Under the pieces are notes generated by a model that saw only the letters and a list, made by a program, of their open reading frames with translations, was not told where the DNA came from and searched no databases. From Blasia pusilla (taxonomy: Eukaryota), in NCBI GenBank assembly GCA_050084515.1, contig CM114271.1:13020001-13084000 (forward strand): DNA of 64,000 nucleotides, read 5' to 3'. Below, piece after piece: positions 22,291 through 64,000 of the stretch; the stretch's first letter is position 1; the number at the start of each line of letters is the position of its first letter. A program made the position numbers and the translations under genes.

Positions 22291-23259
22291 TTACGGGAGA
22301 TGCATAGACCAAATGCATTTACTATTGTAGCCGCAATTTTCAAGTAGTTTTCGAGAGGATGATGAACATGATAGATAGGCAATAATTATGAGAGTCAAGG
22401 GTAGCTATTTATCATGGGCTACTAAAGTTGTGATTAAGTAAGATGATTGTATACAAAAAGCAAGACAATTCATATGAAATGGCACAGAATTGTGTGAATT
22501 TTGCAACACTTAATTTCAATGACCTAAGATTTCAAGTATGAAAGGTATATGAAAGTAAGAACCTGAACCATTATATTATTTACCAACGACAAAAGAAGTG
22601 ATACATAGTGGACAGAGAAGCTATGACAACTAAAATGATTGGCAATAAAGCAATTAATTCAAAAACAATATGCTTATAACTCACGATGCATAAAGATATG
22701 AACAGGAATCTGTAATCAAAGAACGCAGCAGAGTCGAGTTGTAGTGGCATGATTCATGTGTCTCAAACAAGGAAACACAACTGACTGAATGCATACAGTA
22801 GGGGCATATTCAAAACCTTCTGCAATTGATACGAAGTACTGCTCATACATTTGGAACACTAGTATAGATAGTAGTGAACCGAGCTATTACAAAAATGAGT
22901 GCTAGGAAGCAACTATGTCTGTTGTGATGACAAGGGCAGTTCAACGAAACATAGGTAACAATATGAAAAAACCAGGAAATATAAAAAGAGTAAGTTTATT
23001 GCAATTAGGAGAGTAGTAGGTTCCAAAATGTTTAGGGTGAAGCTGTCGCTAATGCAAAGTAGAGGTTATTTGACACTGCAAAGAGTCTCCAAAGAAGACT
23101 AGAAGAGTAATTACAGAATTTAGTGAGACGGATTAGTAGATAGTTGTAACAAACCTGTTTTGTGTTGAGTATTGTAAGAATGTCATTTCTATGACATTCC
23201 TTCTTCTATACTTCTCGCAAATAAAGCATTTATTTTTACATTGAAGGTGAAATTGGTAA

Positions 23260-24730
23260 GTGTGATTTTTGAGCTCGTGGTCATAACTCCATTTTTCTCA
23301 AAACTTTGCAAGAGTGCTACAAACGCAACTTGGGAAAGTTGGACATGATGAAAAATGAAAAAAAAAACCTTCTTTCCATTGAAGGTTAAGTGGTTCAGGG
23401 CCAAAAGGTACTTACATATTTTTGAGGTTTTCCTCACAATTCCATTTTGGTTGAAACTTGGCAAGAGTGGAACAAGCACCTTGGAAACCATGTAGAAAAA
23501 AATTCAGCTCAAGATGGGAAAGTTAGACAAGGTGGAAAATGAAAAAAGCCTTATTTTGATAGAAGGTCTGATGGTTCGTGTCCAAAAAGGAGTTAGAAAG
23601 TTTTGAGCTTTTGCTCACAACTTCATTTTGCCTAAAACTTGGAAAGAGTGCTAGGGTCACCTTGGGGACCATGCTGGCCAAATTTCAACTCAAGATGAAA
23701 AAGTTGGACCAGATGAAAAATGGAAAAACCTTATTTAGATAGAAGGTCTGATAATTCGGGTCCAAAAAGGAGTTAGTATTTTTTTACCTATTGTTCACAA
23801 CTCCATTTTTCCTAAAACTTGGAAAGAGTGCTAGATGCACCTTGGGGACCATTTTGGCCAAATTTCAACTCAAGATGACAAAGTTGGACAAGATAAAAAA
23901 TGAAGAAACCTTATTTTGATAGAAGGTTTGATGGTTCGGGTCCAAAAAGGACTTGTCAAATTTTGAGCTTGTGGTCCCAACTCCATTTTTCTTGAAAATT
24001 TGCAAGAATTCTAGATGCACCTTGGAGACCATGTGGACAAAATTTCACCTCAAGTTGAGAAAGCTGGAGAAGGTGAAATATCATAAGACATTCTTTTCAT
24101 TAAAGATTTAATGGATCGGGCCAAAAAGGAGTTAGTAATTCTTGAGCTTTTGCTCACAACTTCATTTTTCATGAAACTTGTCAAGAGTGCTAGATGCACC
24201 TTGGGGACCATACTGGCCAAATTTGAGCTCAAGATGACAAAGTTGGACAAGATGAAAAATGAAGAAACCTTATTTTGGTGAAAGGTGTGATGGTTCGGGT
24301 CCAAAAAGGAGTAAGTAATTTTTGGGCTTTTTCTCACAACTCCATTTTGCATGAAACTTTATCAGAGTTTAACATGCACTTTGGGGAACACGTGGGACAA
24401 ATTTCAGTTCAAAATATGAATGTTGGACAAGATAAAAAATTAAAAAATCCCTATTTTGATAGAAGGTCTGATGGTTCGGGTCCAAACTAGACTTGCCACT
24501 TTTTGAGCTTGTGGTCCCAACTCCATTTTTCTTCAAACTTGGCAAGAGTGCTAGATGCACCTTGGAGACAACTTGGGCTAAATTTTAGCTTAAGATGGAA
24601 ATGTTAGACAAGATGTCCGGTTAAAGACTTTTTTTTTCCATTCAAGGTTATATGCTTCGGGTCCAAAAGGTCATTTTAAACTTAATTTGGGATGAGACTT
24701 TGCCAGAGTGATAGATGTTACTTTGAGACC
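23260..24730. repeat. Tandem array of ~180-bp monomers, about 8 copies
   Basis: aagagtgctagatgcaccttggggacc-type motif recurs at ~23310, 23463, 23644, 23824, 24004, 24183, 24363, 24544 and 24705. Confidence 0.92.
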
Positions 24731-25046
24731 ATCTGCACTATTCTATAGAATGTTAGAAGAGTTCTTACATTTCACTCTTGTAAGTAATTAGACTCTTGCA
24801 ATCAAATGTAAATGATATCCTACTCCGTAGAGTAAATTCATCCTTCCATAAAATTCAAACCAAATCTATTTATTCTCCATTAAAATTCAATTCCCCTTTC
24901 CATTACATATGAATCAAGGCACCTCTGAATTTATTTATCTAACATTTTTTTGGAAATGTTTTACAAAAAATGAGAAATATCCCACAAAACATCTGGATTG
25001 CGAGGAACCTAATACTTATGTACATTACAAAGATATAAATATCAAC

Positions 25047-33720: not shown

Positions 33721-35537
33721 CGTGACTTTGACTCCGCCGTAATGCAGCTTTCACTCCGACAGTCCAACCCGTGCGACTCCAACTTTGCCACCGCGCCGCC
33801 CTAATCCTATAGTGGCTGAATATCGTTGAATCACAAAGGATATGATCCAATGGCTAAGATTCTCAATGTCCTACCAGCCTCCTCTACTATTTTCCTTGGG
33901 ATGGCTCTATTGCGACCCTCATAACCAAACAAGCACCAAGTGAAACATCAGAAATCTAGTGGGCTCAGGCTAGGATAGTTTGCGCGTTGGAGTGGTCTCT
34001 TGGAAGAGACGCAAGAGACACATGAGATGAGACATGAACAAGGTTGAGCATTTCATGCGTTAATGGTCGCAAGTGGGAAACCTGAACCAAATGTGAACCA
34101 AGGCTTGAGATGAGTCGAGTCTAGGGAGAGTGGTTGCCAAAGAGGCGAGAACTGGATTTGGAACGTGACTAGCATTTGGGGTTCTTACTATATTTTGGAA
34201 AGTAAATTTGAGTCCCAAGATGTGTTTGGGACAAATAGAATGGTGTTGGAAAGCTTATGCAAATCCCATTCCAACGCACTAAAAATCTCAGCAAATGCAC
34301 AAGCATAGGCTGAGAAATTTCCCGAAAACAACTATAAAGGGAGCTAGGTACGTTGAGGGCAAAAAAGAGTGGCCCAAACGTCTCTTCCCCAAAGATAGGG
34401 GGAGGGCAGAGAAATCCACAAGTACTAGTAAGGGAGAAGGTCTCCAAGAGTGTTTGGGACTCAAACCCCACTTTGGGGCGATTCAAGGGCATGGAATGGA
34501 TTTGGAGTTTGGCATTGGGACTTGAAACCCGAACCAAGTCTAATAAAGTGGATTTCAGAGATCCCTATTGGATTCCAACCTACGGCCCATATAGTTGGGT
34601 CTTGATTGGGGATCATATAAGGTCCATTAGACATTTGGGACCTCCACACGTACAAATGTCGTTTTAGATGCTTGGACTAACCAAAAAGTTTATCCCAAGT
34701 CTTGAAAGACTTGCGCGTGTTGGGAAACTAGGAAAAAGGAAGGTTGAGCTTGATGAGGTGTCGAGTTGATAACTCACTAGATTGAAGGCTGATTGACCCA
34801 AACCATACTTATATATGTGTTTGGATGCAGATCAAGAGTGAGATTGTGTCCTACTACATGTACGCTTCCGCAACACTAAAGATTGACGTTCAAGAGTGTA
34901 GAAAATTGCTAAAGAAGCATAACTGGTGGAAAACGGCTCTCACACTCACACATCACCATGGAGAACAAAATTTTGCAATGAGAGAATGAGTGCAGGCTGG
35001 TCCCCTTCTCAATTATATAGGATATGTACAAGCAAACCTAACCCTAATCTTAACCATAGTCTCGAGTTAGACTAACTACGATTAACTAATCCTAGTTAAG
35101 ATAATTGCACTTAATTGACTAACCAAGATTAAGCTTCCCTACTTTGTGTGAGTACCAAATATAGCAGTTCAGGTGTCTCATGAGTTTGATTGTAACAAAA
35201 TCTTCAATACTCCCCCTCAAGCTCATATTGATATCGCTAACGCCTAAATGATTTCTAAACATCTCAAACTTATCTTTAGACAATGCTTATGTAAAGATGT
35301 CAGCAATTTGCTCATCTGTATCTATATACACAAGATCAATTTATCCTGCAAGCACTTTCTCTCTGGTAAAATGATAATGCACCTCAACATGCTTTGTACG
35401 AGCATGAAACACAAGGTTGTTAGCAATCTTGATGCTACTAATATTGTCTACATATATTACACTAGGTCTTAAGTTACTAATACCAATCTCAACAAGCAAT
35501 CGATGAAGCCACACTGCCTCACATGCTATATTGGTTG

Positions 35538-36545
35538 TGTCGCGACCCCCATGACCAAACGAGTGCCAAAGCTAAAACATCGAAACATTAGCGGGCTCAC
35601 CCTAAGATGGTTTGCGCCTTGGAGTGGTCTCGAAGAAGAGACAAGAGACGGGACGCAAGCGAGGCTTCGCGTTTCAAATGTTATGGTCGCGACTGAGAAA
35701 TCTGGACCAAACACGGAACAAGACTTGAAAGGAGTTGAGTCTACTAGAAAGTGGGTTGCCAAAGGAAGAATCTGGATTTGAAACGCCACTAGCATTTGAG
35801 AGTTTCCGACTGTATTTATGGCCATAAATTTTAGCGCCAAGATGCATTTGGATCGAACAAGGATGCGTTGGAAGACTTATGGAAAGATGATTCAAACCCA
35901 CTAAAGATCTCTGCAAACGCATAAGCAGCAGTTGAGAAACAACCCGGAAACGGCTGTAAGTAGAGTCGAGTTGAGGACCACAATGAAGGGCCCGACCCTC
36001 CTTTTCCAAAGGGGGGGGGATTATTGGAGAACCCCAAAAGTACTAGTAAGAGAGAAGGTCTCCAAGAGTGCTTGGAACTTGAACCCCAATTTGGGCGCCA
36101 TGGGGCGGCTCAAGGGCATGGAACGGATCGAGAGTTTCGGGTTGGGTTGGAAAACGTGAACCAAGTCTATGGAGGCAATTCTAGACATCCCTCTTAGATT
36201 TCACCCCGTGACTCAATTACTTGGGTCTCGGTTTGGAACTCACACGAGGTCCGTTGAACAGTTGGGATCGCTAGGCGCGCAAGTGCCGTTTTAGGTTCTT
36301 GGACTACTCATGAAGTCTGTTCCAAGTCTTGAAGGACTTGCCATATTTTGGAAACTAGGAAGTAAGGAAGGTTGAGCTTGATGAGACACCGAGTTGAGAA
36401 CTCCGTGGGTTGGAACGTTGGTTGGCCCAGACTCGACTAACGAGAGTGCGTGTTTGGGTGCAGATCGGCAATGAGATCGTGTCGTACTGAACGTACGCTT
36501 CCGCAACAATAAAGATTGACATTCAAGGAGAGTAGGGGCGCGACA
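35538..36545 (+). mobile_element. Solo LTR of the Gypsy family inserted in the Copia RNase H
   Basis: Termini tgtcgcg...cgcgaca; perfect 5-bp TSD ggttg; the RNase H reading resumes across it. Confidence 0.93.
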
Positions 36546-39500
36546 GGTTGCTCCTCTGTACTCAACCTCTGTTGAAGATAAAGCAACTATAGGTTACTTC
36601 TTTGAAGCCCAACTTATAACTGCGCTTCCCAAAGTAAATGAATAACCAGATGTGGAGTGTCGATCTGACACGCTTCCTGCCCAATCAACATCTGTGAATC
36701 CCTATAATTGTAAACTCGGAAAAGGTTTAAATTGAAGCCTAATTTGAACAGAGAATTTCACATACCGCATAATCCTCCTCACAGCATTAAGGTGATGTTT
36801 TTGAGGTGCTTGCATAAATTGGCTCACTAGGCCAACTGCATGGCTCAAATCTGGCCTGGTTATAGTCAGATAGATCAAACTTCCAACCATGCGTATGTAC
36901 ATATTAGAATCTGCAAGAAAATCTCCTTCATCCACTCTTAGCTTCACACTCTGGTCCAACGGTGTAGAGATTGGCTTACAAGCCGTCATACCATATTTTG
37001 AAAGAGCATATTGTCGTTTACCCACATGCTCTCTCCAACCTTGATAAAATCAACACCAAGGAAGTACTTGACTTCTCCCAAGTCCTTTGTATCAAATTCT
37101 CCCTATAATTTTAGCTTGACTTGTTGTACCATATCCTCAATACTCCTAGTAATCAAGAGGTTTTCAACATACATCACAATGATAATCGTATGATCTTGTC
37201 CTCTCAAGACATATAACGAGGAGTAAGAGTAACATACCCTAAAACCCAACTCTTGTAGGACGTATGTAATCTTGCCATACCAAGGTATATGAGCTTGTTT
37301 GAATCCGTATAGAGCTTTCTTCAACGTACCTACATACGCAAAATGGAAACCCAAGATGCTCATATCCAGGTGGTTGAGTCATATATACCTCCTCATATAG
37401 ATCTCCGTTTAAGAAGGCATTCTTGACGTCCATGTGATGTAATCTCCACTTCTTACTTACTACAACTGCAACCATTATTCTTGTAGTTGCCATCTTTGCA
37501 ACAGGGCTAAAAGTTTCTTCATAGTCAATGCCATATTGTTGTGCATAGCCCTTAGCCACCAATCTTGCTTTGTATTTGTTAATTATATCATCTTGATTGC
37601 GCTTGATTTTGTAAACCGATTTGCAACCAATAGCTACCTTACCGGAAGATATATCAACCAGCTCCCAGATCAGTTGATGTCTTAATGCAGCAAGCTCTTC
37701 CTATATAGCTTCAATCCATTTGGCTTTACTTGCACCTTCTTCAAAACAACTCAACTCCTATTCTTGAAGGGTAGTCATCATATATACATGATGTGTCACA
37801 AGGAAACCTTCATTTATAAATCTATGAACATGATGTGTGATTCTACTTGATCTACAAAGTTGTTGTTCACAAGCAGATGCCTCTGACACGTAGCTCAAGC
37901 TCTCACTAGTGTCAACAAACTGAATACGTACTCTTCTCGTCCATAGACTCACAGATTTAACTGACAAATCTAGGACCTCTCCTAATCCTGCACTAGTACT
38001 TAGGAAATTTGAAGACAGTATCTGTTGGTTTACAATCATATTCTCCTCCTCAACAGACAAGTTTAGAGGTGGAATAGGCTTAGATGGAGCATACCATGAC
38101 TTTACCTCATCAAAAACAATATTGTGACTAATAATAATCTGCCTAGAGGATGGAATGTAGCACTTATATCCCTTAGTTCCATAATCGTAGCCAATGAATA
38201 TACATCTTTCAAATTTGGGGTCTAATTTTTTACGTCTCTCAGAAGGAACATGCGCATAACAAATACAACCAAATACTTTCAGGAAGGAAAAATCAAGTTT
38301 ATTTCCTGTCAAGACTTTGAATGGAGTCTTATCATGAACTTCTGCAGATGGAGTTCGGTTGATTAAGAAGATTGCACATGCTACAGCCTCTACCCAATAC
38401 ACCTTAGGCATATTCTTCTCATTCAGCATAGCTCGTGCCGCCTCAGCAATATGTTGATTCTTCTTCTCAGCCACTCCATTTTTTTGTGGAGTATAACAGC
38501 AAGTCACTTGACGTTGGAGGCCATTCTAACGTAAATAGTCATCAAACTCTATTGAAAGGTACTCTCCTCCTCCATCACAATATAATTTCAAAATGTGTTA
38601 TCTAGTCTGCTTCTCTATTAGAACTCTGAATGTTTGAAAGACTAAGAATATCTCTAACTTGGCTTTCAGAAAGTATACCCATATAAACCTAGAGAAGTCA
38701 TCAATAAATGAAATAAAGTATTGGAAACCACTAAGGCTATGTTGTGATCCTATCCACACATCACTGTGGATCAACTCCAAAATCTAGGATGCTCTTCTAT
38801 CTTGCTTTGGAAAAGGAAATCTAGCTTGTTTTCCAAATTGGCAAGCACGACATACCTCTAACGTAGCAAGACTTGCTAATTTAGGAAGTGCCATTACTAT
38901 ATTAGATGATGAAAGACGTTGTAATCTTTGAAGATTCTTCTGTCCAATTCTCTTATGCCACACATTTAGATATGTGACTTGTTGATCAATTTGACCATAC
39001 ATTGTTGTTTGAATTTATGGCATAGAAACATCTCATTTGAACATTCTGCCAGATCTAGTTCCTTTGGTTATCGTAGTCTGGTCATCCATTATTTCAATTA
39101 AACAATCATCTGTGTTAAACTTCACTTGATAACCCCGTTCTACTATTTGTCCTACAAAGATCAAGTTTCTTGCAATGGTAGGAACATAGAAAATATTTCC
39201 ATTTGATATTATTAGAAATACCGGTATGCGTGATATGATGATGAGTGTCATCTCCTGTGAGCAAAATTGCATGATCTTTCACTGGCTCCATATTATTGAA
39301 CCATTTAGCTTGTGAGGTCATGTGATTTGATGCACCAGAGTCAATACACCGATCTGTTGTCGCGCCTTTCTTGACCATTGCTCCCATATGATGAATCATG
39401 ACCAAGAGATGCTCAGTTTGTGAATGTTGTTGTTCTTGGTACTGCCCTTAGTATTGTCGCTCCACATCTATTTCGTAGATGAATGACCCGAGAAAGTAGT

Positions 39501-39811
39501 TTTGTTGTTGTAAGGCTTATGTTCTCATATCTACCTTCTTCTTGAAGCAAAACTTTGCATAATGACCCTTTATCCAACAGTAATTGCAAGATCCAGGGAC
39601 CCTCTGCTGCTAACCTGGACCCCAACAATTTCCACCATCACCACCTTGTGATTGTGTCTGGTATTGATTCGTAGTTGATTGAGTAAAGTTATATTGAGAG
39701 CCTCTTCCTCCATATGTTTGATATCCACCACGACCACGGAGGCTTGTACCACGACCCCTGCCTCTATTTAATCCATAACCTGCAAATAGCGCACTCTCTT
39801 ATAGACTAGAC

Positions 39812-40091
39812 CATGGTTGCACAAAAATGGACAAGTCCTTCCTTAGAACGGACATGGGTTCCAAGAGTTGGGATCCACACTTATAATCCATGATGGAAGG
39901 TAAGGCAAGGATGAATGGAGCAATGAGGGAGGAGGAAGTGTAGGTGGAGGGAGGAAGAAACAAGGGAGTATGGAACACGAAGGCAAGTAAGGGGAAGGAG
40001 AAAGAAGGGAAAGGTGGGGCCTATATGGACAAGTACTTCTATAAGATAGCCATAAATCCACGGACACGGACTTTCTCCACATGCAACCTTG
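39812..40091 (-). mobile_element. hAT-type MITE inserted in the Copia gag
   Basis: Reverse-complement homologue of 9619-9942; 8-bp TSD gactagac / gactaaac. Confidence 0.88.
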
Positions 40092-42179
40092 GACTAAACG
40101 AGCTACTGCTGCCTCTAGGCGCATCTCTTCACTGATTAACAATAAGACTAACTCTTGAAAGGTTGGATACTTCTCTCTTACAGAGATAGAGATCTCAAAG
40201 GACTTGTAATCTTTTGGAAGGCCTTGAAGAGTGAACATAATCAGATCATCATCTTCTACTGTCATTCCAATATTATTCAACTGATCAACAATATGTTTGA
40301 TACTCAAAATATAATCGTTGATGCTCTACGATCCTTTCCTCACTTCGTTCAATTGCTATTTCAATTGAAGCTCTCTGGCCTTTGTAGATGTCTAGAACAA
40401 CTTTTCCAATGCATCCCAGATCTGGGATGCATTGGAAAAGCATCTATGATCCACTTGAAGCATAGACCACTCCTACACAAAAATTGACTTGAAATTTTCC
40501 AAAATTGATCAATTGTATGAAAGAACTAGTCGAAATTGGCCTGTAGAGAGCAAATTGCACAACTTTTTTTCACTAATTGCACTTTCCTACACTGAAATTG
40601 CGACTGTAGGAGCTCAGAATGTTAGAATCGAGCACTTTTGGATGCGTTGGAAAGCTCTCAACAAGCTCTATAAGACTATTAGAATGAGTCTATGGCATCA
40701 TTTTAACCGATGCAGAACCAGATGGATCAATCGACTGGGAAAGCCCTAAAAAATGCCTCCAACGTTTATCCACCGTCAAAGCTCCACCTGAAATCTACAC
40801 CCATTGAGCTATGAACAAAATTTCCTTCTCTCAAAGTGAAATTGTGCCTTCTCTTTCCTCTCTTCTCTCCTCAAACACCAAGAACTTCAAGTGATGTTCT
40901 CTTATCGCTCTAATACCATGTAGAAAATTGCTAAAGAAGCATAAGTGGTGGAAAACGGCTCTCACACTCACACACCACCATGGAGAACAAAATTTTGCAG
41001 TGAGAGAATGAGTGGAGGCTGATCCCTTTCTCAATTATATAGGGTATGTACAAGCAACCCTAACCCTAATCTTAACCATGGTCTCGAGTTAGACTAAATA
41101 CGATTAACTAACCGTAGTTAATATAATCGCGCTTAACTCACTAACCAAGATTAAGCTTCCCTACTTTGTGTGAGTACCAAATATAGCAATTCAGGTGTCT
41201 CATGAGCTTGACTGTAACTCAATCTTCAATAAAGAGGAGTAGGTGCACGACATGCAGCCCTCCCCTCACATTTCTCCTTCCTTCGAGCCTGACGCCACAC
41301 CTTGCTATGCACTCGTGACCGAGTGAGCCCCGTTGCAAGTCACTAGGCATTGCTTTTTTTTTTGTCTTGGGCTATTTTTAACTGCTCCAACTATGCTCGA
41401 TTCTCTCTAGGCTTGTGTGCTAGTGCGATCAAGCGCTTGTGGGTTTGTGACTGTGTGAGATCTTGGCTTGCTGCGCACTCGTGTAATTCTATAGCTTTCC
41501 TATCTTTCCAATTAAGTTGATATGTGTTTTATGCTCGTGCCATATTTGTAGCTACAATCACGTTTCAATCTTATAATTGCAAGCAGGTTCAGTCTTGCAT
41601 CCAAAGTTGCGCTCATAGTTGCAGCTCTATTATAGAGTAGATCATATCCGTTGAGTTGTTTTGCAAGCTTAAAGCACTTCTGACTAGTTGTGCATCCACA
41701 TTCCTAGCTACATGTGCATCGCTTTCATGCTCATAGCCGCAACTCTTTAATTCAAGATGCACCTATACAACATATGTGCTTGACATTGTGACTAGGAGTA
41801 GAGATTCTTTTGATTACATCGCGGGTGAGTAGGGACACAATCATGCTCACGGGTGCGGCTAGTCTCATTACAATCAACAGCCAAGGTCTTTTTCTCTCAG
41901 TGAGTAGGCAAGGGTTTCTCTCTCAACGGATGGGGGTTAACTATTAAGATTTTGTACTAAACGTTCACTCAATAGAATAAGCCGCTCTCCAAAACACACT
42001 CTCCAACTCACACATCATTATGATAAGTGAGGGCTCGAATGTAAACTTCCATTTCAAGCTTGCATAGTGACCATATAAGCATAGTTCCCCAACCTATAGT
42101 TGAGTGCATTCTTTTGCTCTACACCCAACTTCACAATGAAATCTTAATCTTGAGCACCACACGTCATTTATTATTAGCT

Positions 42180-42710
42180 TTTTGTGCTATTATTGATACT
42201 CGTAGGATCGTAGTTCCTTCCCTGCCCTTAGAAGATAAGGTTGCCTTATCTTCTAAGGGCAGGGAAGGAACTATTGACGGTGGTATCCCCTAATGTTGAG
42301 TATTCGGAACAAGTGTGTTCTAGGCTGTTTTGATAGATGTGGAGCCGCCTCTCTGAGTGTTAGTCCTCTTTAAATGGTGTTGAGGGGGCCCCGAAAGATC
42401 TTCCTTTGATATTCCCTGAACATCCTTAGGGACATATCCCTTACTTGACTCTTCATGGACATTAGACGAAGGGATTGAGTCCCTTTATGCATCTCCATAG
42501 TCTGGACCTTCTGAGGGGCTCAACCGCATGCCCCTTGAGGGACTAATATCTGCGAGTGGATTTTTATAGTCACTCACTCGGATAGATTCATCAAGAGAGT
42601 TGGGAGACCAGTTGTTGCCTTCTAAAGGTGAAGCATTTGCATGCTTTATCCCATAATGCTTTTTGGATGGGGCTACAAACGCTGCCATACTCTTTCCCTT
42701 CCCTTGTGAA
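42180..42710 (-). pseudogene. Diverged, 5'-truncated copy of the Helitron-borne SKKHYG ORF (H1)
   Basis: SQGKGKSMAAFVAPSKKHYGIK...NWSP...DYGDA*RDSIP...SKGYVPKDV aligns with the copies at 57369-57992 and 59910-60479. Confidence 0.75.
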
Positions 42711-45700
42711 AGTTGAATTTGGCCTCCAAATCAAAGATTCATTGGAAATTCTTTATTCAACCCTCCAAATTTGATAGATAAGATATAACCTTGCTATTCT
42801 CAAAGCATTCTCTCCATGAAAGGTTTGGGGACTAGTGTACAAGGCAATCAAAGCTTTCTCTAGGTCCATGAAAACTCATATTATGACCCGCGTTGAGGTC
42901 GTTCAAAATACCTCTCACATCCTTATATATCTCCTCTTCCAATTGGACTAGACCTTCACAACTATCTAAATGATCCAAGCCATCTTGACCTTGGCGATGT
43001 CTATTTTTTCCATCCAAAGAAGAAAGTAAAAGGCCTCTTAACATTTCACCGTTGTGATGTTCATCAAATATCATGCAATATGGTTCAACTCCTCCTTCCT
43101 CTCCTTTATCCGGTTAAGAAGATGACGATTGATGATGATGTCAGGGCTAAGGGCCCATACTTTCAAAGTTGGCTAAAGTATTAAGACTTGGTTGTTTTGA
43201 CTACAACCATGGGGTCTTCAAGAAAGGTTAAGAGACTGAAAGTATCAGACTTGTGGTCTCTTAACCTTAAACCCTAAACACAAGTCTAAGACTTACAGTC
43301 TCTTATCTTAAAATTTTCTTGAAGACCCATTCTCCACATCACTATAATAGACTTCTATCTGCTTTATCAACTTCACAACTTTGAGCTTCACAAATACCTT
43401 GCTCACTAATGTCCTCTTCTTTGCTCCAAGGTCCTCATAACTTGCAAACGCATTGAAAAAGACCTAATCCCTCTTCAAATTTTCTTCTTTGACTTTTTCT
43501 CTAAATTTGGCTATTCGATTCGCAATTTCCACCATTACGGAGTGGAGGGTCTTCCACGACCACCGTTGACATGATGATAGGTCATATATGCATGGATCAT
43601 ATATCCATAATCATTTACAATGACTGAAAATCACACATTCAAAATTTTCAATCATGCCTTCTATTCCTCATGAAAAACATACAATCCTCAAACAGATTTA
43701 TAGCGACACTATCTTGGTAAAAGAAATCCCATCATGATAATCTCAATGAGTATATGTGCATGGTCTTACACGTGAATCTATATTTTCTACACCTAATTTT
43801 TTTGGAATTTAATTTGGGATATGCAACAAGATCTTCTAGGATTTTTTTATCAAAGGGATTTTAGGCTAATGCCCAAATTCAAATCCAATCCAAATGAGCC
43901 ATCTAATTTTTTTGTAGCCATCCTCGACAACAAGGTTGTGCATCACATGGTTCAAATTCTTCATATTGATAATTCCTATGGCTTATTGAGCCTTACTCTC
44001 AACTCTTGTGATGTATGCCCCAACATGCTTTTTTCTATTCATGGGGCCATCATTTTTAAGACGAGACTAAGCACTTGTCATCCCACAAGGCGTTTCCCAA
44101 ACCTTCAAACTTAATACAAGGCCCAGACTTAGATCCAAAATGAATGAAAATTTTCTTAGGGGGAATCACAAACGCTTGTGGATGATCTTCATGGTAACAA
44201 GAAGACAACTACAAGTTAAATGTCATTCAAGCCAAAGTGAGACATTGAACTTTTGCAACTCTCTCAAACTTGCCCCTCGGTTCTTGAAGGTATGGCATGC
44301 TTGCTTCCAATTCTCTTGGTGCCTACCATTTGAGTATGGATAGATGGAATGCTCTATCAACCTTCCTACCATTGGAAGTTGGAACTATTCCTCGATGTAA
44401 GATGGAAGAAAACACTTCCTCTCACATTATTGGTTGTCTCAAATATAATAGAGATACTTTCTTAAACATCTTCATGCAATATTAAACATCTTCGCTAAAG
44501 CCATGGTTAACTTTAAAAATACATAGAATTGCGTAAACCTTAGCCCAAAGTATCATGGCAATTATCTCCTATGAATACATCTTTGTTAGGAATCCACACG
44601 ATTCCATAAGGAACTACCAATTTCTTCCCCACTACAATCCTATGTCTCTTGAAAAGACCCATTACAATTTATTTAACATTGTAAAAGTATAGGGTTAAAA
44701 ATGCTCAATATAACTACATAAATTCAAGGACACGAGAGAACTCCACGTTCATAACCTCTTACCTAAAAAGAATAAGTTAGAGTTTGATTAAGAGATAACA
44801 AGGAGTGTAAATATCCATTTCGGTCTTACAAATTTCTAACTATCCCCAAAGGCACGCAAAGAATTTCCTCAAAAAATTCCTAGTAACCTTGAAAGCTCTC
44901 AAGGCTCGAAAAGAAATTTGAGGCCCAACCCAAAAACTCATCTTGCACTCAACAAAAAGTGAAGGAAAATCATATGGTAAGTGGGTTTAATTAAAGAACT
45001 ATTAAAAGTTAAGTTCATTTTGGGGCCAATTTTTTTGTTTAGGGAAAGTTTGGAGTGGGGGAGAGTAGGCCAAGGATGGAAAGCTCCACCGATTTGGTCT
45101 CTCTTCGTCGCGACATGGGAGTTCGCGAGATGCATCCACATGTAGATTTAGGCACCACAAAACCAAAGCCATCATGGGGTTTGCAAGACATGGGGGGAAA
45201 CGCAAGAGATGATGAAAGCCAGACATAGGGTGGAATAATGAAGATGGTGCAAGCCAACTAGGCTTGCATCATCTCCATTATCATGAGGAAGGGTCCAGGA
45301 TTGTGAGCGGGAAGGGCCACGGTACTAATCTTCCACTCGAGGGGAGGTAGGAAAACTTTTTTGCACTCATTCTGATTTTTTGAACAAACATAGGTTCATG
45401 GACACGAACTTCATTTGTGTACAACCTTTTTTCCTACCATACTTGAATGTAATTAATTTAGGATTTTAAAATATTATGTGGCATTTGCACAAGAGAGGAT
45501 AAGAACGTAAAATATTAAAGTGTATTCTCTTACAAGCCTTCATTTCTTCTCGAGCAAAGAACAATCTTTTCTCAATCTTTCGAATGTTGGTAGCAAGACA
45601 ATGTTTACCTAGACATTAGGAGCTTGTTTGAGTCTCTTTTGGAGCAAAGGAAGTACTAGTGTTCCAACACTTGGATGGGCATTCCAAACCTTAATGACAC

Positions 45701-54788: not shown

Positions 54789-55285
54789 CAATGCTGCCAG
54801 ACCAGATTGTTGTCGACCTACAATTGCCCGACTCTCTCATCCTTCACCATCACCATCAAATGGTTTATGCACGGAACCGTCTCATAATCCTATCTCCATT
54901 GTGGAGAAGACTGAGGGTGGCACGGGAATTTCAATGGCTGACCAGGAGAAGGGAACTTCATTCCATTACTCGTTAATTAAACAAAATGTGAGAGAGAGAA
55001 GTGACTTATTCTCCACGAAGACCCAAGAGAGCCATCAGCCATGAGAACAGAGCACTACCAAATAGCCGATGGCCCCGTGTTTGTTTCTGGAAAACTGATA
55101 CGAATTGACGTATTCCCGCAAGATCGTGTTCATACGTCAGTTCGCTTTCAGGTAAGCTAATCAAGCCGAAGTAGAAGATTTTGAGCCAAACCTCACCAAT
55201 CTCGCGGACTTAACGGAAACTTACTGATCCAATCCCTCGGACCAGACGATTCGGAGCCATTGGAAATTGGAGAAGTGGTTGAGAG

Positions 55286-55858
55286 ATGTTTAAATTACCT
55301 TTAACTTTGGTTTGTCTTAGCAATGATTGCACTCAATTAATTTGTACACACCGTACCAATGTCCAACTTTTCAACCTTATTGCGCTTTGCAAACTATTTG
55401 GTGTAGCTGAGATCTTTCCATTACATGTAACTACAGATGCCCCTACTGACCCGCAGTTTAATAAGTGGATCTGCAACATCCAATTTCATGAACTTCAGTT
55501 TTTAGCAATTGGCTGTAAGGTCTTGCTTACATCAAACATTGACCTAAAAAACTAGGATGCAAATGGTGCATGGGCAACGGTTGTAGATTGTGTATATAAG
55601 CAAGAGGAACTGAGTGCCATACCGGTGAGCCTCCACTCAAATAGCAAGGTCATTAGAGTAACAAGGACTAACTTTGCTACCTTGAGGCATGGGCCTAGCC
55701 AAAAATACCACAACCGGACATTTTCGCTAATATTGGGGTACACTATGACAAACCATAAGAGTCAAGGCCTCACTGTGAAAGGCAAGTGTTTACTCAACAT
55801 CAAGTCTACTTTTGCTACAGAACTTGTGTATGTCCTAGCATTACTCCACCATCATTAG
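55286..55858 (+). pseudogene. PIF1-family (Helitron-type) helicase C-terminal fragment
   Basis: IGCKVLLTSNIDLKN*DANGA matches G..VML..N.D.....NG; YTMTNHKSQGLT matches motif V (T.HKSQG.T); VYVL is the start of motif VI. Confidence 0.75.
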
Positions 55859-55949
55859 AAGGCCTGAAAAAATTATCCACATGTTATAAAGAATAGATAT
55901 CCATAAAAGAAAGAAAGATTTTGAGTTGACTTTTATATATATATATACC

Positions 55950-58886
55950 TTATGAATTGACTACCAATAATTAGAACCTCCTCATTTGTAATAGTTGCAA
56001 TACTCTCAACCACCAACGCAAGTGCAACTTGAACATGATTCGCCTTCCTTTTTTTCTATATTCTCGACAATATGTCTTTCTTTTTCTTTGAGAGCTTCCA
56101 TTTTATCAACGCGAATAGCACGTTTTCATTTTTGGGCTTCGCCGCGGAGAACCTTATGAAAATCACGTATATCAACATAATTCAATGGAATGGGAAGTCT
56201 GAAATAACACAAAAATGTTAAAAGCAAAGAAAATTAGAAGTAGAGATTATATAGGATGGGAATTTGGACATGCTAAATGATTTTCAATGCAATGAACTTA
56301 CGTTGGAGATGTTTCGGGGTGGAGTTCATCTTCAAACATTGTTTGTTGTACTAGGATTTCCTTGCAACGTGCACGCCTTTTTCGTTGTGCAATCACACGC
56401 ATCAATTTTTGGAAGTGACGTAAATCTGTAGGATTTGATGGGACAGGAAGTCTATGCAATAATTGTAGGAATTTCATGATTAAAAAAATATTTTTGAAAA
56501 TATATTTACAAATCGAATAAGTAGTGTAGGCCACATACTTACATCAAAGAGGTGTTCTTCAATACTTCAATTTGTCTCTGTGAAATTTGTGGTATATTTG
56601 TGATCACACCAAGTGGGCGTCTCTCCATGTTCGGTATAATCCCCACGAAGTCACCATCTTCAACATACAACACGGAACTATTCATTAGGGTTAGAGGTTA
56701 AGGAGAATGATGAAATTAAAGAGGAGACTCAAGAAGAAATCATAAATTTGGAGGATAGAGGATAGATGCCCATTTTTGTAAAAAATAAATAAATATGAAA
56801 GAGAAAAGAATAGGGTAAACAATAAGAAGGTAAATTATAAGAAAAAAAGGAAAGTTTGTTAGAAATTCTTAGTAGAAGAATAAAAAAAGGAAGAGGGAAA
56901 AAATAGGGTTTAGTGGTAGTGAGAAAATTTCTTTATAAAAATAAAAAATAGGAAAAAAATAATATTTAAATAAAAATGTATTATATTAATTGGATAGGTT
57001 CGGGCCATACGCCTAGGTTCGGCAGCCCGAACCTAAAAACCCGCCCAACCCTCCCGCCGCCGCCACCTCCCCAGATCGTGCGGCCTGATCTCATGGCCCC
57101 CAAATCTAATGGGACAGACGATCTGGCCCAAGGCGCAAATCGTGCGTGCCCTCGACCTGAACTCTCAATCCCCTTCGACATCTACCCCCATTCCCCTCCC
57201 ATTTGCGCGCTCTCCCATTCTCCTCATTCACGAGAGCGTCCCGGCTCGTCCCCGCTCCTCTTAACTCCCGCACTTCCGCACTCCCACACTGCTCGTCTCC
57301 TCTCCCATTTTTCAAAAGTAGCTTTCCTTATCAAAGATGATTTACATGTATCCATCGCTACGCTACTCCTACTCTCTCATCAAGTACTGTGTCACTATCT
57401 GAATGTTAATAACCACACCCTTACCCTTTTGCTTTTTCTTAGGTGAGTTCTTACTCGCCTTTGGTTCTGGGGTACATTCAGTGGGCACCTTGGTGTCAAT
57501 CAGGGACCTCCTATGAGATGGTGATTGAACCTCATTTACATTGGGGTGTGGTGACTTAACACGCTTCTTTGATGATGCCCTCTCTGTAGTATACTCCCTT
57601 TCACTGTTCGGCCTCCTAAGCCGATATGGGGGTGTCCCTTGGATTTCTAAAAAAATATCGTTTCCCAAGTCAGGTACTGGTTGTGGAAAGTACCCCTTAT
57701 TTGACAACCCAGGTTGCCCTCCAGAGGGAAGTGAATCTTTTATGGCATGCTCAAATCCTAGAGCATGCTCAGGGGTGAGTCTCTCTCCCCAAGGAGGACT
57801 ATCTACACAATGCAAATTTTTCCACTTACTCATACGCATGAAATCCTCTTGGCATACAAGAGGCCACTTGGAACTTTGCAATGGATGGAGATCGAATGAC
57901 TTTACACCATAATGCTTCTTTGATGAAGCGGCCTTGGACACATTTTGCCCCTTCCCCTATGTAGACTTTTTGGTTGTAATTCTTGTTGCCATGTGTAGAT
58001 AGCTTTGTCTTGTTGTGCACCTTTCTTGCAAGTTGTCGGAGCTGCTTGAGTTGTTGAGCTACTAGAGGTGTGGAGCTGCGGGAGCTGCTAGAGGTATGGA
58101 GGAGCTGGTGAAGCTGTGCAGCTATTGGAGCTAGAGCTTGGGATCTGCTCGTGCTGTAGCTCAAAGAGTTGTTTGAGCTATATCTCGAAACGTGTCTTCC
58201 GAGAGTTGCTTGACCTGCAGCTGGATTCAAGAAGTAGTCAATTGTCATAGTAATAGCATAGTACTCTACGATTGAAAAAGCATTAAGAAGTGCATTAGGG
58301 GAGCTTGTAAAGTCTTCAACTCATCAACTACTCTACTTCTGCTTCTGTAATACTCCAAACACCACAGCAATAAACGTTGGAAGTTGACGCCTAGTGTCTA
58401 TAAATGCATGCATGAAAAGTAGTCATGACGCTACATGAGCAAGTGAGTGATTGTCGGGAGCACAAAAACTCGGGAGTTGTGTAATTCGGACATCGGCAAT
58501 AAATACTCAACTCCTGCAAGTCCTTTGTGGTTTTACGACCGCAGTGACAACCTGGTTCCCCCCACCATGTTCGAAAATCCAAAGGGCCTCCTATGATCGA
58601 CAGATCGTAATTGTCAAGGACAAGAATTTGAATTTGTACAAAACCGTTAAATCAGTGCGGCGCATTTTTCAGAACCCTAAACTACACATTCCAACAGCTC
58701 AGAATGGCACACGTCAGACGTCATGTCCTCCAAACCTCAAAAACCCTAAAATGCCACGGGTCAGAAGTTCCAGGTGCAAACGGCGGAAGTTCTCCCGTTT
58801 GCATACGGAACTATTTTTAGTTGTTGAAAAGGACACGTGTCACGGACTATGGGGCGTTTGCACATCTAGAGGCCACTCTCTCTTAA
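55950..58886 (-). mobile_element. Helitron H2, 5' portion only
   Basis: Inverted homologue of H3: near-terminal ttaagagagagtggcc...gcaaacgcc, SKKHYG ORF, GC-rich then T-rich spacer, and RepHel 5' exons 56628-56543, 56451-56302 and from 56198 on; left boundary approximate. Confidence 0.85.
57369..57992 (-). pseudogene. Helitron-borne uncharacterised basic protein (SKKHYG ORF), H2 copy; stop at codon 12
   Basis: MATRITTKKST*GKGQNVSKAASSKKHYGVK... is open for another ~195 codons and aligns end to end with 59910-60479. Confidence 0.8.
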
Positions 58887-59294
58887 TCTATACTATTATG
58901 GGAGAGTCCTTTCTCGCTGCGCAAACACCTCTCCAACTGCCATGTGGCACTTCAAGCGAACCAGGGTGTTCCGTGCTTACGTCTGACGTAGTCTGTTTTA
59001 GGGTTTTGTTCATAGCCACCCTAGCCTCCTGTAACAATTTTCCTAACGAACGTGGAATTTTGGCGCGTCTGAAGCGTAACTAGCACGTGCGACTAACTTA
59101 GGGTTTCATTTTTGGCCGCAAATTTTGTGTCAATTTTCTGTCCTTTCTGGTTTCGATCCTTCAAACCAGCGTCGTCCGATGAGATTGGCTTCTTATTTCT
59201 CGAGCAGTGAGTGCGAGGGTTTTGATTCAAACTTGACCCTATTTATTCACTCTTACAAATTACAGTCCCCATTTTTCTCATGAACAGTTGTTGA

Positions 59295-59766
59295 GGTAAA
59301 GTGAACTCATTCATTCACTGTCATTCATTCTCGCTGAACTTCATTTATTGCTAGATAGAGTAAGACATGTCTCTGCTTTACGAGTCTACATTGCTTTGAG
59401 CTCTATGAACTAAAATAGTGAGCTCGGTGTAGTTGCGGATGAACATAGCAAGCTCAGTTTGCCCCGAATAAGCGGCCCTTGATGTGATCTCAAGATCAGC
59501 TCGCGCGTTCTTGACGTCCCCTACCCTGGTAAAGTGAACTCAGTCATTCACCGAGCTCTACTGTCATTCATACATGCTGAACTTCATTTATTGCTAGATA
59601 GAGTAAGACATGTCTCTGCTTTACAAGTCTACATTGCTTTGAGCTCTATGAACTAAAATACTGAGCTCGGTATAGTTGCGGATGAACATAGCAGGCTCGG
59701 TTTGCCCCGATTAAGCGCCCCTTGATGTGATCTCAAGATACGCTCCCGCGTTCTTGACGTCCCCTA
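59295..59766. repeat. Tandem duplication of ~235 bp in H3
   Basis: ggtaaagtgaactca...ttcttgacgtccccta starts at 59295 and again at 59528, highly similar. Confidence 0.9.
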
Positions 59767-59909
59767 CAACAACAACTTTAACGACTTTTCGAGAGCTCCT
59801 ACACATTCAACGTTCGCTCCATCACCTCCTAAGCTCCTCACATTTCGGACAGCTTCCGACATCTGCAACATCCGAAACAGCAAAGGAGCAGAACGAAAAC
59901 TACCTAGAG

Positions 59910-60479
59910 ATGGCAACAAGAATCACAGCGAAAAAGTCAACACAAGGGAGAGGAAAGAGTGTGTCCAAGGTAACGAGCTCAAAAAAACATTACGGTGTAA
60001 AGTCACCAGATCTCGAAGCATTGGAGAGTACAAAATGGTCTCCAATAAGTCATGGGGACTGTATGCGCTTGAGCAAATGGAACAAGTTGCACTGTGATCG
60101 TCCCACTTGGGGAGAGCCGATCACCCCCGTGCATGCTCCGGGATTTGAGTATGCAATAAAGGACTCCATGCCCGTTGCACTCCTCCCTACGGATTCCGAC
60201 AAAGGGTACGATCCGAAGCCAGTTTGAGGAGAGGGAATAGATGTTGTAGAGGAGGAAGGGACTCCTCCCTATCACATAAGGAGGCCCGGCATGGAAAGGG
60301 AACATACCGAGGAGGGAGCCTCTGCTAAGAAGCGGAGAATGACCCCGCACACTAACCGAAATCAGCAAAGCTCACCATCCAAGGGAAGGTCCGCGGTAAC
60401 TCCAGAGTGCACAAAGAAATCCCCACATAAAGGGCAAAAGGGGAAAGAAGTTGTAGTGAATATTCAGATCCATATCTGA
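59910..60479 (+). pseudogene. Helitron-borne uncharacterised ~190-aa basic protein (SKKHYG ORF), H3 copy; one in-frame TGA at 60225-60227
   Basis: ORFs 59727-60227 and 60291-60479 are in the same frame; MATRITAKKSTQGRGK...SKKHYGVK...KGYDPKPV*...AKKRR...KGKEVVVNIQIHI. Confidence 0.8.
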
Positions 60480-60699
60480 ATTTGGGATCTAGGAGAGGGT
60501 GAGCACGCCGATCAGGAGTAGAGTAAATCAAATAGTCATGTACTGCTTACGTTGAAATGAAAGCGACATAAAAGTTTTTTGAATGTCTCTGCCAACCCCT
60601 CTTTCAGTATTCAACTTGAGTACTAACTCCACCCATTTTGCCCCTACGTGTCCCAGGTGTACATGTGTAATAGGAGAGAAATAGCTTCGGAGACCAATA

Positions 60700-61680
60700 G
60701 CCTAGCTGTCAAAAGAGACACTGTAGCCGAAGTGTACTATCAAACGAGCCCGACCATCAAAAGCACAGTAGCCAAACTAAATCCCCGAGACCCGATGTGC
60801 AATGTTGTGAGAGCCCGACCGTGAAGAAATCCCCGAGATTCGATCTGCAAGGTTGTGAGAGCCCGACTGTCAAAAGCACCCGAGTCAAACAACTAGCAAG
60901 AGAGCCCGACCGTCAAAAATACCGAGAGTCGAACAAGTAGCAAGAGAGCCTAGCAAGATAACCTGAGAGCCTGAGAGTTAGGGAAAGAAGTCAATCAAGA
61001 ACACCGAAGAGCAGAACCGGAAAGGGGATGAGCCTAGACAGCTTGCAATCAGATCTCCAGGAGCTGCGGCAGGTTCGCTGCATTCGAAGATATTCCTGGG
61101 CGTTGGCCGAAAGGTACCCGAGTCAAAGCTAGCAAGACAGCCTAGCTCAGAGCCGAAAATGAACATTGCAGATCGAGTGCGCACGAGCCGGGAGGAGGGT
61201 GCGCTGGAGTGCTCGAGCGCGCACGAGCCGGACGGAGGGGCGCGCTCAAGTGCCCCTCTATAACGCACTCAGAGAGCAAGCGCCTGAGGGATCGGAGAGG
61301 AGGGCGGAGAGAGCTAGCAAGAGAGTAAATCAACTACCTAGGGAAAGACAGAAAAATTCCATCATCTGAAAGGTAAGGTGCATAGTACCCAACGAAAACC
61401 CTAAACGAAAATGAGCCAAAAATGAGCCAAAAATGATCCGAGAATGAGCGCACTCGAGCTCGTGCGCTCGAGTGCGCACGAGCCGGGAGGAGTTGGAGTT
61501 CTGGAGTGCTCGAGCCTAGCCAAAAATGCGCCGAAAATTAGCCGAAAATGAGCGCACTCGAGCTCGGGCGCTCGAGTGCGCACGAGCCGGGAGGAGTCGG
61601 AGTTCTGGAGTGCTCGAGCGCGCACGAGCCGAACGAAGGGGCGCGCTCAAGCCAGAGAGCGGACAGACGAGCTCGCAAGG
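60700..61680. repeat. Internal repeats of H3 (gagagcccgaccgtcaaaa units, then palindrome-rich GC units)
   Basis: ~5 gagcccgac units at 60745-60980; ctcgagtgcgcacgagccgggaggag-type units at ~61173, 61467 and 61572. Confidence 0.8.
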
Positions 61681-62174
61681 GCGAGCGACTGAGAGTGGAG
61701 GTGGGAGTGGGAGTGAAGGGGGAAGGGTGGAGGGGGGAGGGTGTAGGGTGACGGCTCACGGCTCATGCCGTGAGCCGTCAAATGCACCATCTAACGGCCT
61801 CTTTTTCTTGGCCGTTAGATGGGAGAGTGATGATCCAACGACCCTAGGATTTGAAGGCGGCGCATGAACAGGGGCGGGACTCGGTTCAGGGCTAGGGTTG
61901 GGAATGTTAGGTTAGGCCCAGGTTCGGCCTATCGAACTTGGGTTTTTTTTTATGAATTTCCTTACAAAATTTTTTTAAATGTAATTTTCTCCTTTTTTAC
62001 CTTTTTTCCCAATTATTTACAATTTCTAATTTTTGAGAAAATTAAAATAAATCTTCCCCCTTACTCTTCTTCCCTAAATTCTTTTCTTTCCCTAAATTTT
62101 ATTTTATAAATTTCATTTTCTCTTTGTTTTTCTTTCAATTTCTAATTTTTATTAAAATAAATCTCCCCCCTTAC

Positions 62175-64000
62175 AAAAGGCGTGTCCGTCGCAAGGAAAT
62201 CTTAGTTCAACAAACACGTCGCAAAGATGAACTCCGACCTGAAACATCTCCAACGTAAGTTTACTACATCGACGTTCATTTAGCCTGTCCAATTTCCTGC
62301 CAAATATTGACTTTTCATTTAATTTTGTAAGCTTTTAACATTCATAAGTTGTTGTAGACTTCCAATCCCATTGAATCCTGTCAATATACGTGACTTTCGG
62401 AAGGTCCTACGTGGCGAAGCCCAAAAACGAAAGCGTGCTATTCGGGCTGATAGAATGGAAGCTCTCAAAGAAAAAAGGAGGAATTACTATCGAGAGTATA
62501 GAAAAAGAAGGAAAGGGCTTAATGGTCGAGTTCAGCCTGAGAGTATTGCACCTATTCCATTAAATAGGTACCTATATCTAACTATTCACTTCATAACTAC
62601 TTGATTTACTCCATATTTGATTTGTATTTATTCTTATCAATATTTTGACATATTTTCTCAGGCCTTCAAATGAAGATGGAATAATAGTAGAAGAAAATCA
62701 AGAAGTGAGCGAACAATCGACGGATTATATTTATATATCGCCAAGACTCGTGTTAGTTGACAATGCATTTCATGAAGTTATCGAGAATACATCCACGATT
62801 GGGCCACCACAAGTTGAGTTACCTACCACTCCTCCTATTCCAATTCAAGATGAAGTTGTCAAAAATTTGTCGACCGCTCTTCCTATTCAAGTTCAAGATG
62901 AAGTTGTCGACAATTCGTCGACCACTCTTCCTATTCCTGTTCCAGATGAAGTTTTCAACAATTCGTCGACTTTTGCCCAACTCGGGGATGAATCAAGGTC
63001 AAGAGTAGATGCCATGTCTCCTAATGGAGTTTTGTTATCTCCACAACATGCCACTGTACCAAACACTTCTATAATTTGTGCATCGTCTGCCCTTGATAGA
63101 GTTGTAATATTAAATACAACTCTCAATCTTGCAAGGAGGCCAAATTTTCAAGAAAGTGATATTCGAAAGTTGCGATTACAAAGGAGTTTGAATCATACCA
63201 GCGGTCGTCATACATTAGGTTCTATGACATAGATATGTCCCTCATGCCGTGCTTTGCATTGGAAATTTGAAGTGGTCAAAGGTACTAAGTTTGGTGACTC
63301 ACCATATGGCATGTGTTGTGGCCATGGAAGAATATACTTACCTCTCTTGAGATCATCTCCTCCATTTCTGAAATCCTTGATTTTGGGTGTTGGTCCTAGA
63401 AGCGTTCATTTTCTTACACATGCTCGAGCTTATAATTCGGCACTTCAACTTGCATCTACCGGGGTACATGTAAACGAAAAAATTGGTGGCACTGGACACT
63501 TTAGGGTCCAAGGCGGGATCTATCATTCCATTGGACCTTTACATCCTGATATTGGGGGACATCCTCAATTTGCTCAACTATACATCCATGATACTGCAAA
63601 TGAATTGGAAAATCGTGCTAGAGTTATGTCTACATCTTCTATTCTTAATATGGATATTTTGAAAGGTCTCCAAGACATGTTACATGAATGCAATCCATAT
63701 GTGAAGATCTTTCGTCATATGGCATATGAAGCAAGTGATCTTATTGTGCGGATTATCCTCAAGGCAAGTAAGAGAGGACTCGATGCAAGGCGTTATAACT
63801 TACCAATTGCGTCTGAAGTTGCTGCTATTTTTCCGGGTGATGGAAGTGAACAAGTTGAGCATCATGATATAATTGTACGACTACATGGAGGAGGAGTCAA
63901 ACGTATATCCGACCTCAACGAAGCATATATTCCCTTACACTTTGTTTTGTTATTTATCTATGGTGAAGGAGGTTGGCATCCTGTAATACCCTTTGGGCCA
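62175..64000 (+). pseudogene. Helitron RepHel 5' part (zinc finger and N-terminal domain), one in-frame TAG at 63230-63232
   Basis: Short 5' exons, a 16-aa (48-bp) repeat x3, then ICPSCRALHW...YGMCCGHGRI...YNSALQLAS...FRVQGGIYH...PQFAQLYIHD...NPYVKIF...RRYNLP..SEVAAI...YIPLHFVLLFIYGEGGWH, open to the window end. Confidence 0.93.

Follow-up and report, generated by a model that had tools for sequence, protein, structure and literature searches.

A selected open reading frame linked to Helitron Rep sequences in Blasia pusilla: a candidate accessory gene with a histone H3-like start

In a 64,000-nucleotide stretch of the Blasia pusilla genome (assembly GCA_050084515.1, contig CM114271.1, positions 13,020,001 to 13,084,000; hereafter the window), an open reading frame (ORF) at 59910–60479 is, to judge by its pattern of substitution, or once was a real gene under selection, and there is good evidence in the surrounding DNA for its linkage to a Helitron family. 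The reading we favour, with a probability of roughly 0.55, is that it encodes an accessory protein that serves the element in the nucleus, where its charge would let it act on DNA or chromatin. The resemblance of its first ~14 residues to the tail of histone H3, which first drew attention to this ORF, is most likely a coincidence of composition in an N-terminus rich in lysine, serine and threonine.

The ORF occurs three times in the window. Copy 1 (59910–60479, plus strand; 189 codons plus stop) begins at the first ATG of its frame (59910), a frame that is open upstream to 59715, and its product starts with MATRITAKKSTQGRGKSVSK... (MATRITAKKST); a single in-frame TGA at 60225–60227 precedes the terminal TGA at 60477–60479. 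A TBLASTN search of the window with the read-through translation returned two further copies. The full-length copy 2 (57992–57396, minus strand, E = 1.4e-57) shares 56–59% of its amino acids with copy 1 (55.8% over 199 tblastn columns) and starts with MATRITTKKST, followed by a TAG at codon 12 (57959–57957) and then by GKGQ. Copy 3 (42730–42350, minus strand, E = 2.1e-17) is decayed, with 33–37% identity to copy 1 (36.9% over 122 tblastn columns, at 42709–42350), an internal TAA (42487–42485) and no C-terminal half; it has neither an ATG nor a MATRIT start, and FGGQIQLSQGKGKS after a TGA replaces the MATRITAKKSTQGRGKS of copy 1. All three window copies are pseudogenes. What the first-pass annotation had read from the letters, namely the starts of the ORF and of its second copy and a nonsense codon in every window copy, is all present. 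In the three-copy alignment the invariant residues cluster in SKKHYG.K, in KGY.P and at a few W, P, G and R positions. Only 1.9 kb separates copies 1 and 2, which are arranged head to head and may represent an old local inverted duplication and not two insertions; a weak 47-nt palindrome (58766–58812) is found between them. The window itself is rich in transposable elements (TEs), with 41% G+C and no N.

Comparison of copies 1 and 2 provides the main evidence for a coding past. Over 185 codon pairs the Nei–Gojobori method gave dN = 0.300 and dS = 1.277, hence dN/dS = 0.24, a value that comes from the one informative copy pair and that, since dS is saturated (~1.3) and both copies are broken, should, if it errs, lie too high for the functional phase. 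The ratio was 0.20 for the first 104 codons and 0.27 for the remainder. As a frame control, the same nucleotide alignment was read in all six frames, giving 0.24 and two stops in the ORF frame as opposed to 0.43–1.60 and 10–19 stops in the other five. The ratio near 1 that the annotation had named as speaking against its proposal was therefore not observed, the low value being confined to the ORF frame. Within the ORF the two copies share 73% of their nucleotides, and the similarity found by blastn sets in 14 nt ahead of the ATG and does not reach beyond the ORF.

The predicted protein is about 190–200 amino acids long and rich in lysine, serine and proline, with an isoelectric point of 9.56 in copy 1 and 9.92 in copy 2, 32 and 34 lysines plus arginines, and eight and seven [ST]P sites, respectively. 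A KKRR segment is present at residue 139 of copy 1 (KKR at 141 in copy 2), and copy 2 contains SPKK. The lysine-rich tails of linker histones carry minor-groove binding motifs of the S/T-P-K-K type, and the K/S/P-rich basic character of the ORF product, with the SPKK of copy 2 and KSPHKGQKGK in copy 1, recalls these tails in composition only; unlike linker histones, it contains no globular H1 domain and has no detectable homology to them. An AlphaFold model (mean pLDDT 50.1, pTM 0.15, 114 of 189 residues below 50) consisted mostly of coil with two short helices, and although a low-confidence model built upon an alignment of three sequences is weak evidence of disorder, the protein is probably largely disordered. 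Residues 1–105 matched no Pfam family at E ≤ 10, and neither this search nor the AlphaFold model revealed a histone fold. The annotation's portrait of a basic, SP/TP-rich polypeptide with an NLS-like KKRR and no histone fold thus agrees with these data. The remainder of the protein gave unrelated Pfam matches below threshold only, and sub-threshold matches to Gag_p12 (17.4 bits against a cut-off of 25), Aquarius_N_3rd and DUF1918 were set aside as compositional.

Searches for homologues were uniformly negative within their scope. A phmmer search of 177,635 distinct PDB sequences gave no match at E ≤ 10 for residues 1–105 or 1–25, HMMER filters being liable to lose very short weak matches; 18 candidates of near length included none at E ≤ 0.01; and a profile of the three copies found no match among 1,835,955,588 representative proteins, land-plant proteins included. 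The ESM Atlas gave no usable match, none of 192 pattern matches in a first scan of metagenome contigs was confirmed and a second scan gave no matches, and Rfam had no match in 55000–64000. An ordinary host gene fragment, the origin that the annotation had held up against its own proposal, finds no backing here, since no host gene or known family was matched. The stops in all copies, the failure to find homologues or a confident fold and the low-complexity composition are what one would expect of a chance open frame in repeated DNA with no gene behind it. Such a frame would not, however, leave a co-linear, full-length protein alignment with 56–59% identity and two stops while the flanking DNA has diverged beyond detection, nor would it yield a dN/dS of 0.24 specific to one frame, and we consider this explanation scarcely credible.

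The link to Helitrons is one of position. All three times, a Rep N-terminus follows the ORF on the same strand, at a distance of 1.5–3.8 kb once a nested copia element has been subtracted. Downstream of copy 1, the N-terminal coding region of the Rep/helicase of element B (62621–64000, plus strand) runs off the window; it matched 47 proteins at E ≤ 1e-5 with 31–45% identity, most of them with PF14214, and a tblastn search with five of these proteins agrees. The Rep region downstream of copy 3 (element C, 32180–29669, minus strand) is homologous to element B over 32174–30899, and contains a Helitron_like_N domain (PF14214, 30316–30594, minus strand, E = 2.4e-17). Downstream of copy 2 there is a remnant (56381–55840, minus strand) comprising a conserved block (56381–56026) and ~60 nt from the start of the Rep N-terminal region, beyond which nothing was found there. 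The corresponding block between copy 1 and its Rep (62175–62532, plus strand), shared with 56381–56026 on the minus strand at 78% and partly with 32757–32650 on the minus strand, probably represents short coding exons. Copy 3 and its Rep are separated by a nested Copia-type LTR retrotransposon (34897–41231, minus strand; LTRs at 34897–35209 and 40919–41231, 93% identical), in which Pfam identified Retrotran_gag_2, SH3_retrovirus and RVT_2 and for whose integrase the best named relatives are land-plant sequences, ranging from liverworts and ferns to angiosperms, which points to a land-plant host that is possibly not an angiosperm. No helicase part was found in the window by tblastn with five Rep/helicase proteins, which recovered N-terminal and Rep parts only; element B extends beyond the window, and A and C are truncated elements.

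Neither a terminus-to-terminus element nor an intact copy of the ORF was seen in the window, and as no element is seen end to end, the placement of the ORF inside Helitron borders is argued solely from this threefold linkage. Helitrons have a 5'-TC terminus and a 3'-CTRR terminus with a 3' hairpin, and ATCTATACTATTAT resembles the plant Helitron 5' end. A candidate 5' end, TCTATACTATTAT preceded by an A, is located at 58886–58899, some 1.0 kb before the ORF; a 3' end was not recognised. Words resembling ATCTATACTATTAT with up to three mismatches number 18 in the window (for example at 1004, 10714, 46389 and 58886) against 8.5 expected, a count reached by 2 of 100 shuffles, and further Helitron ends may be present. 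Over 63233–64000, the closest named relatives of the Rep sequence belong to agaricomycete fungi (37–40%) and rank above the single named plant match, from Wolffia (35%), an order that may reflect database content only; the nested copia element, by contrast, is clearly of plant type.

Since the ORF always precedes Rep on the same strand, with short coding-like blocks between them at 62175–62532, it might be supposed to belong to the Rep/helicase gene as its first coding exon. We judge this very unlikely. Both full-length copies reach a stop no more than 12 codons after the shared ...VV(V/I)NIQI, and a single good GT donor follows copy 1, situated past the stop. No RNA joint between the ORF and downstream parts was seen, RNA coverage there being very thin, and the failure of the three-copy profile to find any match means that the retrieved Rep relatives have no ORF-like N-terminus.

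The DNA upstream of the ORF also points away from an exon of Rep. Doubled ACGTCA motifs are typical of plant histone promoters, and a promoter-like cluster between the head-to-head copies (58673–59105) contains two ACGTCWGACGT motifs (58711 and 58979) together with four telobox-like AACCCTAA words (58673 and 58742 on the plus strand, 58998 and 59098 on the minus strand), mirrored towards copy 2 and copy 1, with each motif set 560–930 nt upstream of its own ORF. In the window AACCCTAA occurs 11 times versus 2.23 expected, a count that none of 100 shuffles reached, and ACGTCWGACGT twice versus 0 expected. Copy 3 likewise has a AACCCTAA at 43270, ~540 nt upstream and in the same relative orientation. 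Further AACCCTAA words occur at 35040, 41056–41069 (some of these in the copia LTRs), 56685 and 61397. A tandem duplication (59317–59767, plus strand; 243 nt, 1.9 copies, 93% matches) lies upstream of copy 1, and a CT-rich leader precedes the ORF. These features suggest that the ORF would be a transcription unit of its own with a plant-type promoter. Given the upstream motifs and the leader, such a unit fits an accessory or a captured gene and not a Rep exon.

Sequencing reads bearing the same species label were taken from one DNA run and three RNA runs and placed at 80% likeness. Among 1471 DNA reads placed, 7 were at least 99% alike, and depths of 21–47 over the ORF and 91–136 over Rep indicate that the ORF/Rep family is multi-copy. 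Position 60225, the T of the internal TGA in copy 1, is G in all 24 DNA reads covering it and in the single RNA read, restoring a sense codon, so that this TGA is private to copy 1; DNA reads also differ from the window at 60099, where 28 of 29 have G for C, and at 60175, where 22 of 22 have C for T. In DNA reads over 59780–64000, the differences between family copies comprise C>T at 131 places, G>A at 116, A>G at 100 and T>C at 77, an excess of C>T and G>A as expected for methylated, silenced repeats. A 48-nt tandem repeat in three copies (62825–62970) lies inside the Rep N-terminal frame, and in five DNA reads 31 other letters take the place of 127 nt (62858 to 62986), indicating that the Rep N-terminal part varies in length among family copies. 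The segment 61331–62175 has a DNA depth of ~2–4 and contains GC-rich 104-nt repeats, and on the upstream side of 62175 an alternative sequence is shared by 26 diverging DNA reads; this segment seems specific to this copy or its subfamily.

RNA reads were placed in all three runs (211, 329 and 208, respectively), none of them at least 99% alike, and copy 1 itself is therefore unseen as RNA. A 38-nt block around the ATG (59897–59934, plus strand, agreement 0.99–1, loose ends at 59897 and 59934) holds 125, 224 and 142 of the reads, which are confined to it. The flanks of these reads resemble the upstream and coding sequence of copy 2, so the abundant RNA derives from a relative that is diverged and resembles copy 2. 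In a table read by hand this relative appears one base shorter in the A-run at 59930–59935, placing its KKST apparently out of frame with the ATG after codon 8. First mates fall on the plus strand in ~98% of cases at the ATG block and mostly on the minus strand in the Rep region. A few RNA reads of other relatives cover the ORF. Members of the family are thus transcribed, while expression or translation of an intact ORF does not follow from these reads. The RNA-seq evidence sought by the annotation accordingly exists for the family but not for copy 1, and its most abundant source is apparently frameshifted.

Transcription of a relative and a plant-like promoter would both be expected had the Helitron family captured a small host gene that encodes a basic nuclear protein, taking up its promoter, its leader and its coding region, and carried this unit since as passive cargo with no role for the element. 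Helitrons commonly capture genes (PMC4683698, available text), the AACCCTAA and ACGTCA motifs are conserved in position and orientation among copies, and the one single-sequence relative abundant in three RNA runs could be a host or domesticated copy. Nevertheless, the protein collections searched, land-plant proteomes included, contained no homologue of such a gene, both copies in the comparison that reveals purifying selection are linked to Rep remnants, and the transcribed relative is apparently frameshifted with respect to its ATG. We therefore retain capture as a tentative alternative of rather low probability.

Our preferred reading makes the ORF an accessory gene ('ORF1'), specific to its lineage, that a land-plant Helitron family carries upstream of Rep/helicase and that has its own promoter-like region and CT-rich leader. 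As far as composition can tell, the ORF1 protein would enter the nucleus and use its basic stretches, which resemble linker histones, for non-specific binding to nucleic acid or chromatin, and in this way it may aid the element's own transposition or expression. This accessory reading offers no specific explanation for the N-terminal 33 nt, the best-conserved stretch of the ORF. A precedent is found in the RPA-like gene that plant Helitrons often carry (PMC4683698, available text), and more generally in plant Helitron accessory and captured genes, which like ORF1 are extra ORFs beside Rep/helicase. In contrast to the RPA-like genes, ORF1 has no RPA/OB-fold or other Pfam domain, no fold and no homologue in the collections searched, and it differs from known accessory genes in lying upstream of Rep and in being small, basic and predicted to be disordered. 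Abundant as plant Helitrons are, their proteins beyond Rep/helicase and the RPA-like protein are poorly known, and a selected orphan ORF is of interest both as a candidate accessory factor and as a family marker.

It was the N-terminus that led the first-pass annotation to propose an H3K9-tail mimic and anti-silencing factor. MATRITAKKST aligns with the N-terminus of H3 with one gap (M-A, T, then T-A-(K)-K-S-T-x-G-(K)), the likeness starting at the very N-terminus directly after Met-Ala and ending, by eye, at about residue 14. With the family lysine at residue 14 (copies 2 and 3), T-A-K-K-S-T-Q-G-K agrees at seven of nine positions with H3 residues 6–14. A six-frame translation of the window (127,996 residues) contains the motif TA[KR]KST a single time, and 8 of 200,000 shuffles of residues 2–40 with composition preserved produced it, frequencies to be read in light of the fact that this ORF was picked for its H3 likeness from a very large scan. 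The likeness is real as letters and may be no more than a selected coincidence. A second H3-like block, GVKSP (compared to H3 residues 34–38), was dropped, the other copies reading GVKSF and GIKHA.

Between the two informative copies, conservation does not single out the motif. The N-terminal 11 residues of copies 1 and 2 are identical at 10 positions, a level reached by 5 of 191 eleven-residue windows, four of which lie over SSKKHYGVKS; a uniform identity of 57% predicts ~2% of such windows by our own binomial estimate, about as seen. The annotation had asked for conservation of its motif above that of the rest; in these two copies the motif is no better conserved than the SSKKHYGVKS block. 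At the nucleotide level, the N-terminal 33 nt are the best-conserved stretch between these copies (29 of 33), with 8 of 11 third positions identical versus 94 of 187 overall, which points to constraint on the start context as much as on the peptide.

The residues flanking the lysine are also at odds with a functional mimic. Motifs of the H3K9/K27 type (ARKS/T) have alanine at position –2, arginine at –1 and serine or threonine at +1. The core is A-K-K-S in copy 1 and T-K-K-S in copy 2, so that –1 is lysine and not arginine in both, as the annotation had itself cautioned along with the shortness of the match, and both of these caveats hold. Copy 3 has no motif, a loss that weighs little in a pseudogene, although SKKHYGIK is kept there. 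For the human G9a/GLP enzymes, arginine at –1 is the main contact after the target lysine, and G9a accepts no substitution at this position (PMC2797608, available text), a preference that may not hold for plant SUVH enzymes.

According to the mimicry hypothesis, the N-terminus imitates the H3 tail at K9, or descends from the 5' end of a captured H3 gene, and serves as a decoy for writers or readers of H3K9 methylation, thereby shielding the element. The one-gap alignment directly after Met-Ala, the retention of 10 of 11 residues between copies 1 and 2 under a dN/dS below 1, and the rarity of the motif in shuffles (8 of 200,000) are consistent with it, and anti-silencing factors of plant TEs do exist, in the form of VANC (10.1101/2024.04.02.587720, available text). 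Against it stand lysine for arginine at –1 in both copies, in a position critical for human G9a/GLP (PMC2797608, available text), threonine for alanine at –2 in copy 2, the missing motif of copy 3, a conservation that the best other block equals, and the lack of any H3 match at E ≤ 10 among PDB sequences and of any likeness after about residue 14; moreover, GVKSP is present in copy 1 only, and the ORF was selected for the resemblance. We consider mimicry highly unlikely. The same low standing applies to its most elaborate version, in which the ORF1 N-terminus would be a functional H3-tail surrogate, a T-A-K-K-S-T-x-G-K head of ~14 residues that a basic nuclear protein borne on a Helitron acquired or evolved, expressed from a host-like promoter (AACCCTAA plus doubled ACGTCA), and would blunt silencing of the family by rivalling nucleosomal H3 for an enzyme or reader directed at K9 or S10; if true, this would be the first transposon-encoded histone-tail decoy. 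In sum, the proposal of the annotation gained no positive evidence beyond the letters. The outcomes that it had listed as fatal did not refute it either, as the dN/dS value is less than 1, the TGA is a private change of copy 1 and no host match was found.

Comparison with known systems places these doubts in context. Automethylated mimics in G9a/GLP create HP1 binding sites (PMC9768651, available text), and with such histone mimics, including viral ones and the ARKS/ARKT type in general, ORF1 shares a K-S-T core after a basic residue in a basic, flexible region, as it shares with H3 itself the location of the motif at the very N-terminus. It differs from the mimics by lysine at –1 in both copies, threonine at –2 in copy 2 and the absence of the motif from copy 3, and its likeness is known from sequence alone. 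The VANC protein of VANDAL elements (Mutator-like) in Arabidopsis, a folded, sequence-specific DNA-binding protein with a MAIN/MAIL1-like domain (10.1101/2024.04.02.587720, available text), is in the literature consulted here the only well-described plant TE anti-silencing system. It resembles ORF1 in being a TE-encoded accessory protein besides the transposase, but ORF1 has no fold and no similarity to VANC, and belongs to another TE superfamily. The survey of Arabidopsis TE products in the available text of the same source found no Helitron with relevant ORFs. Among the matches listed in a literature search, as far as titles and abstract openings reveal, none described a histone-tail mimic encoded by a Helitron or other transposon. 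Short histone-like motifs arise easily in basic tails, and a claim of mimicry consequently needs the critical residues, family-wide conservation and biochemistry.

Two further features of the window lie outside the ORF and Rep regions. A perfect hairpin at 42207–42273, on the 3' side of the truncated copy 3, has a stem of ~29–30 bp and a 3-nt loop, and folds as single-stranded DNA with –36.7 kcal/mol (z = –14.85; none of 200 shuffles fold as well); could it be the end of a foldback element or the source of a small hairpin RNA? A tandem array at 23195–24741 consists of units of ~180 bp with 70–78% identity, and is partly open on the minus strand.
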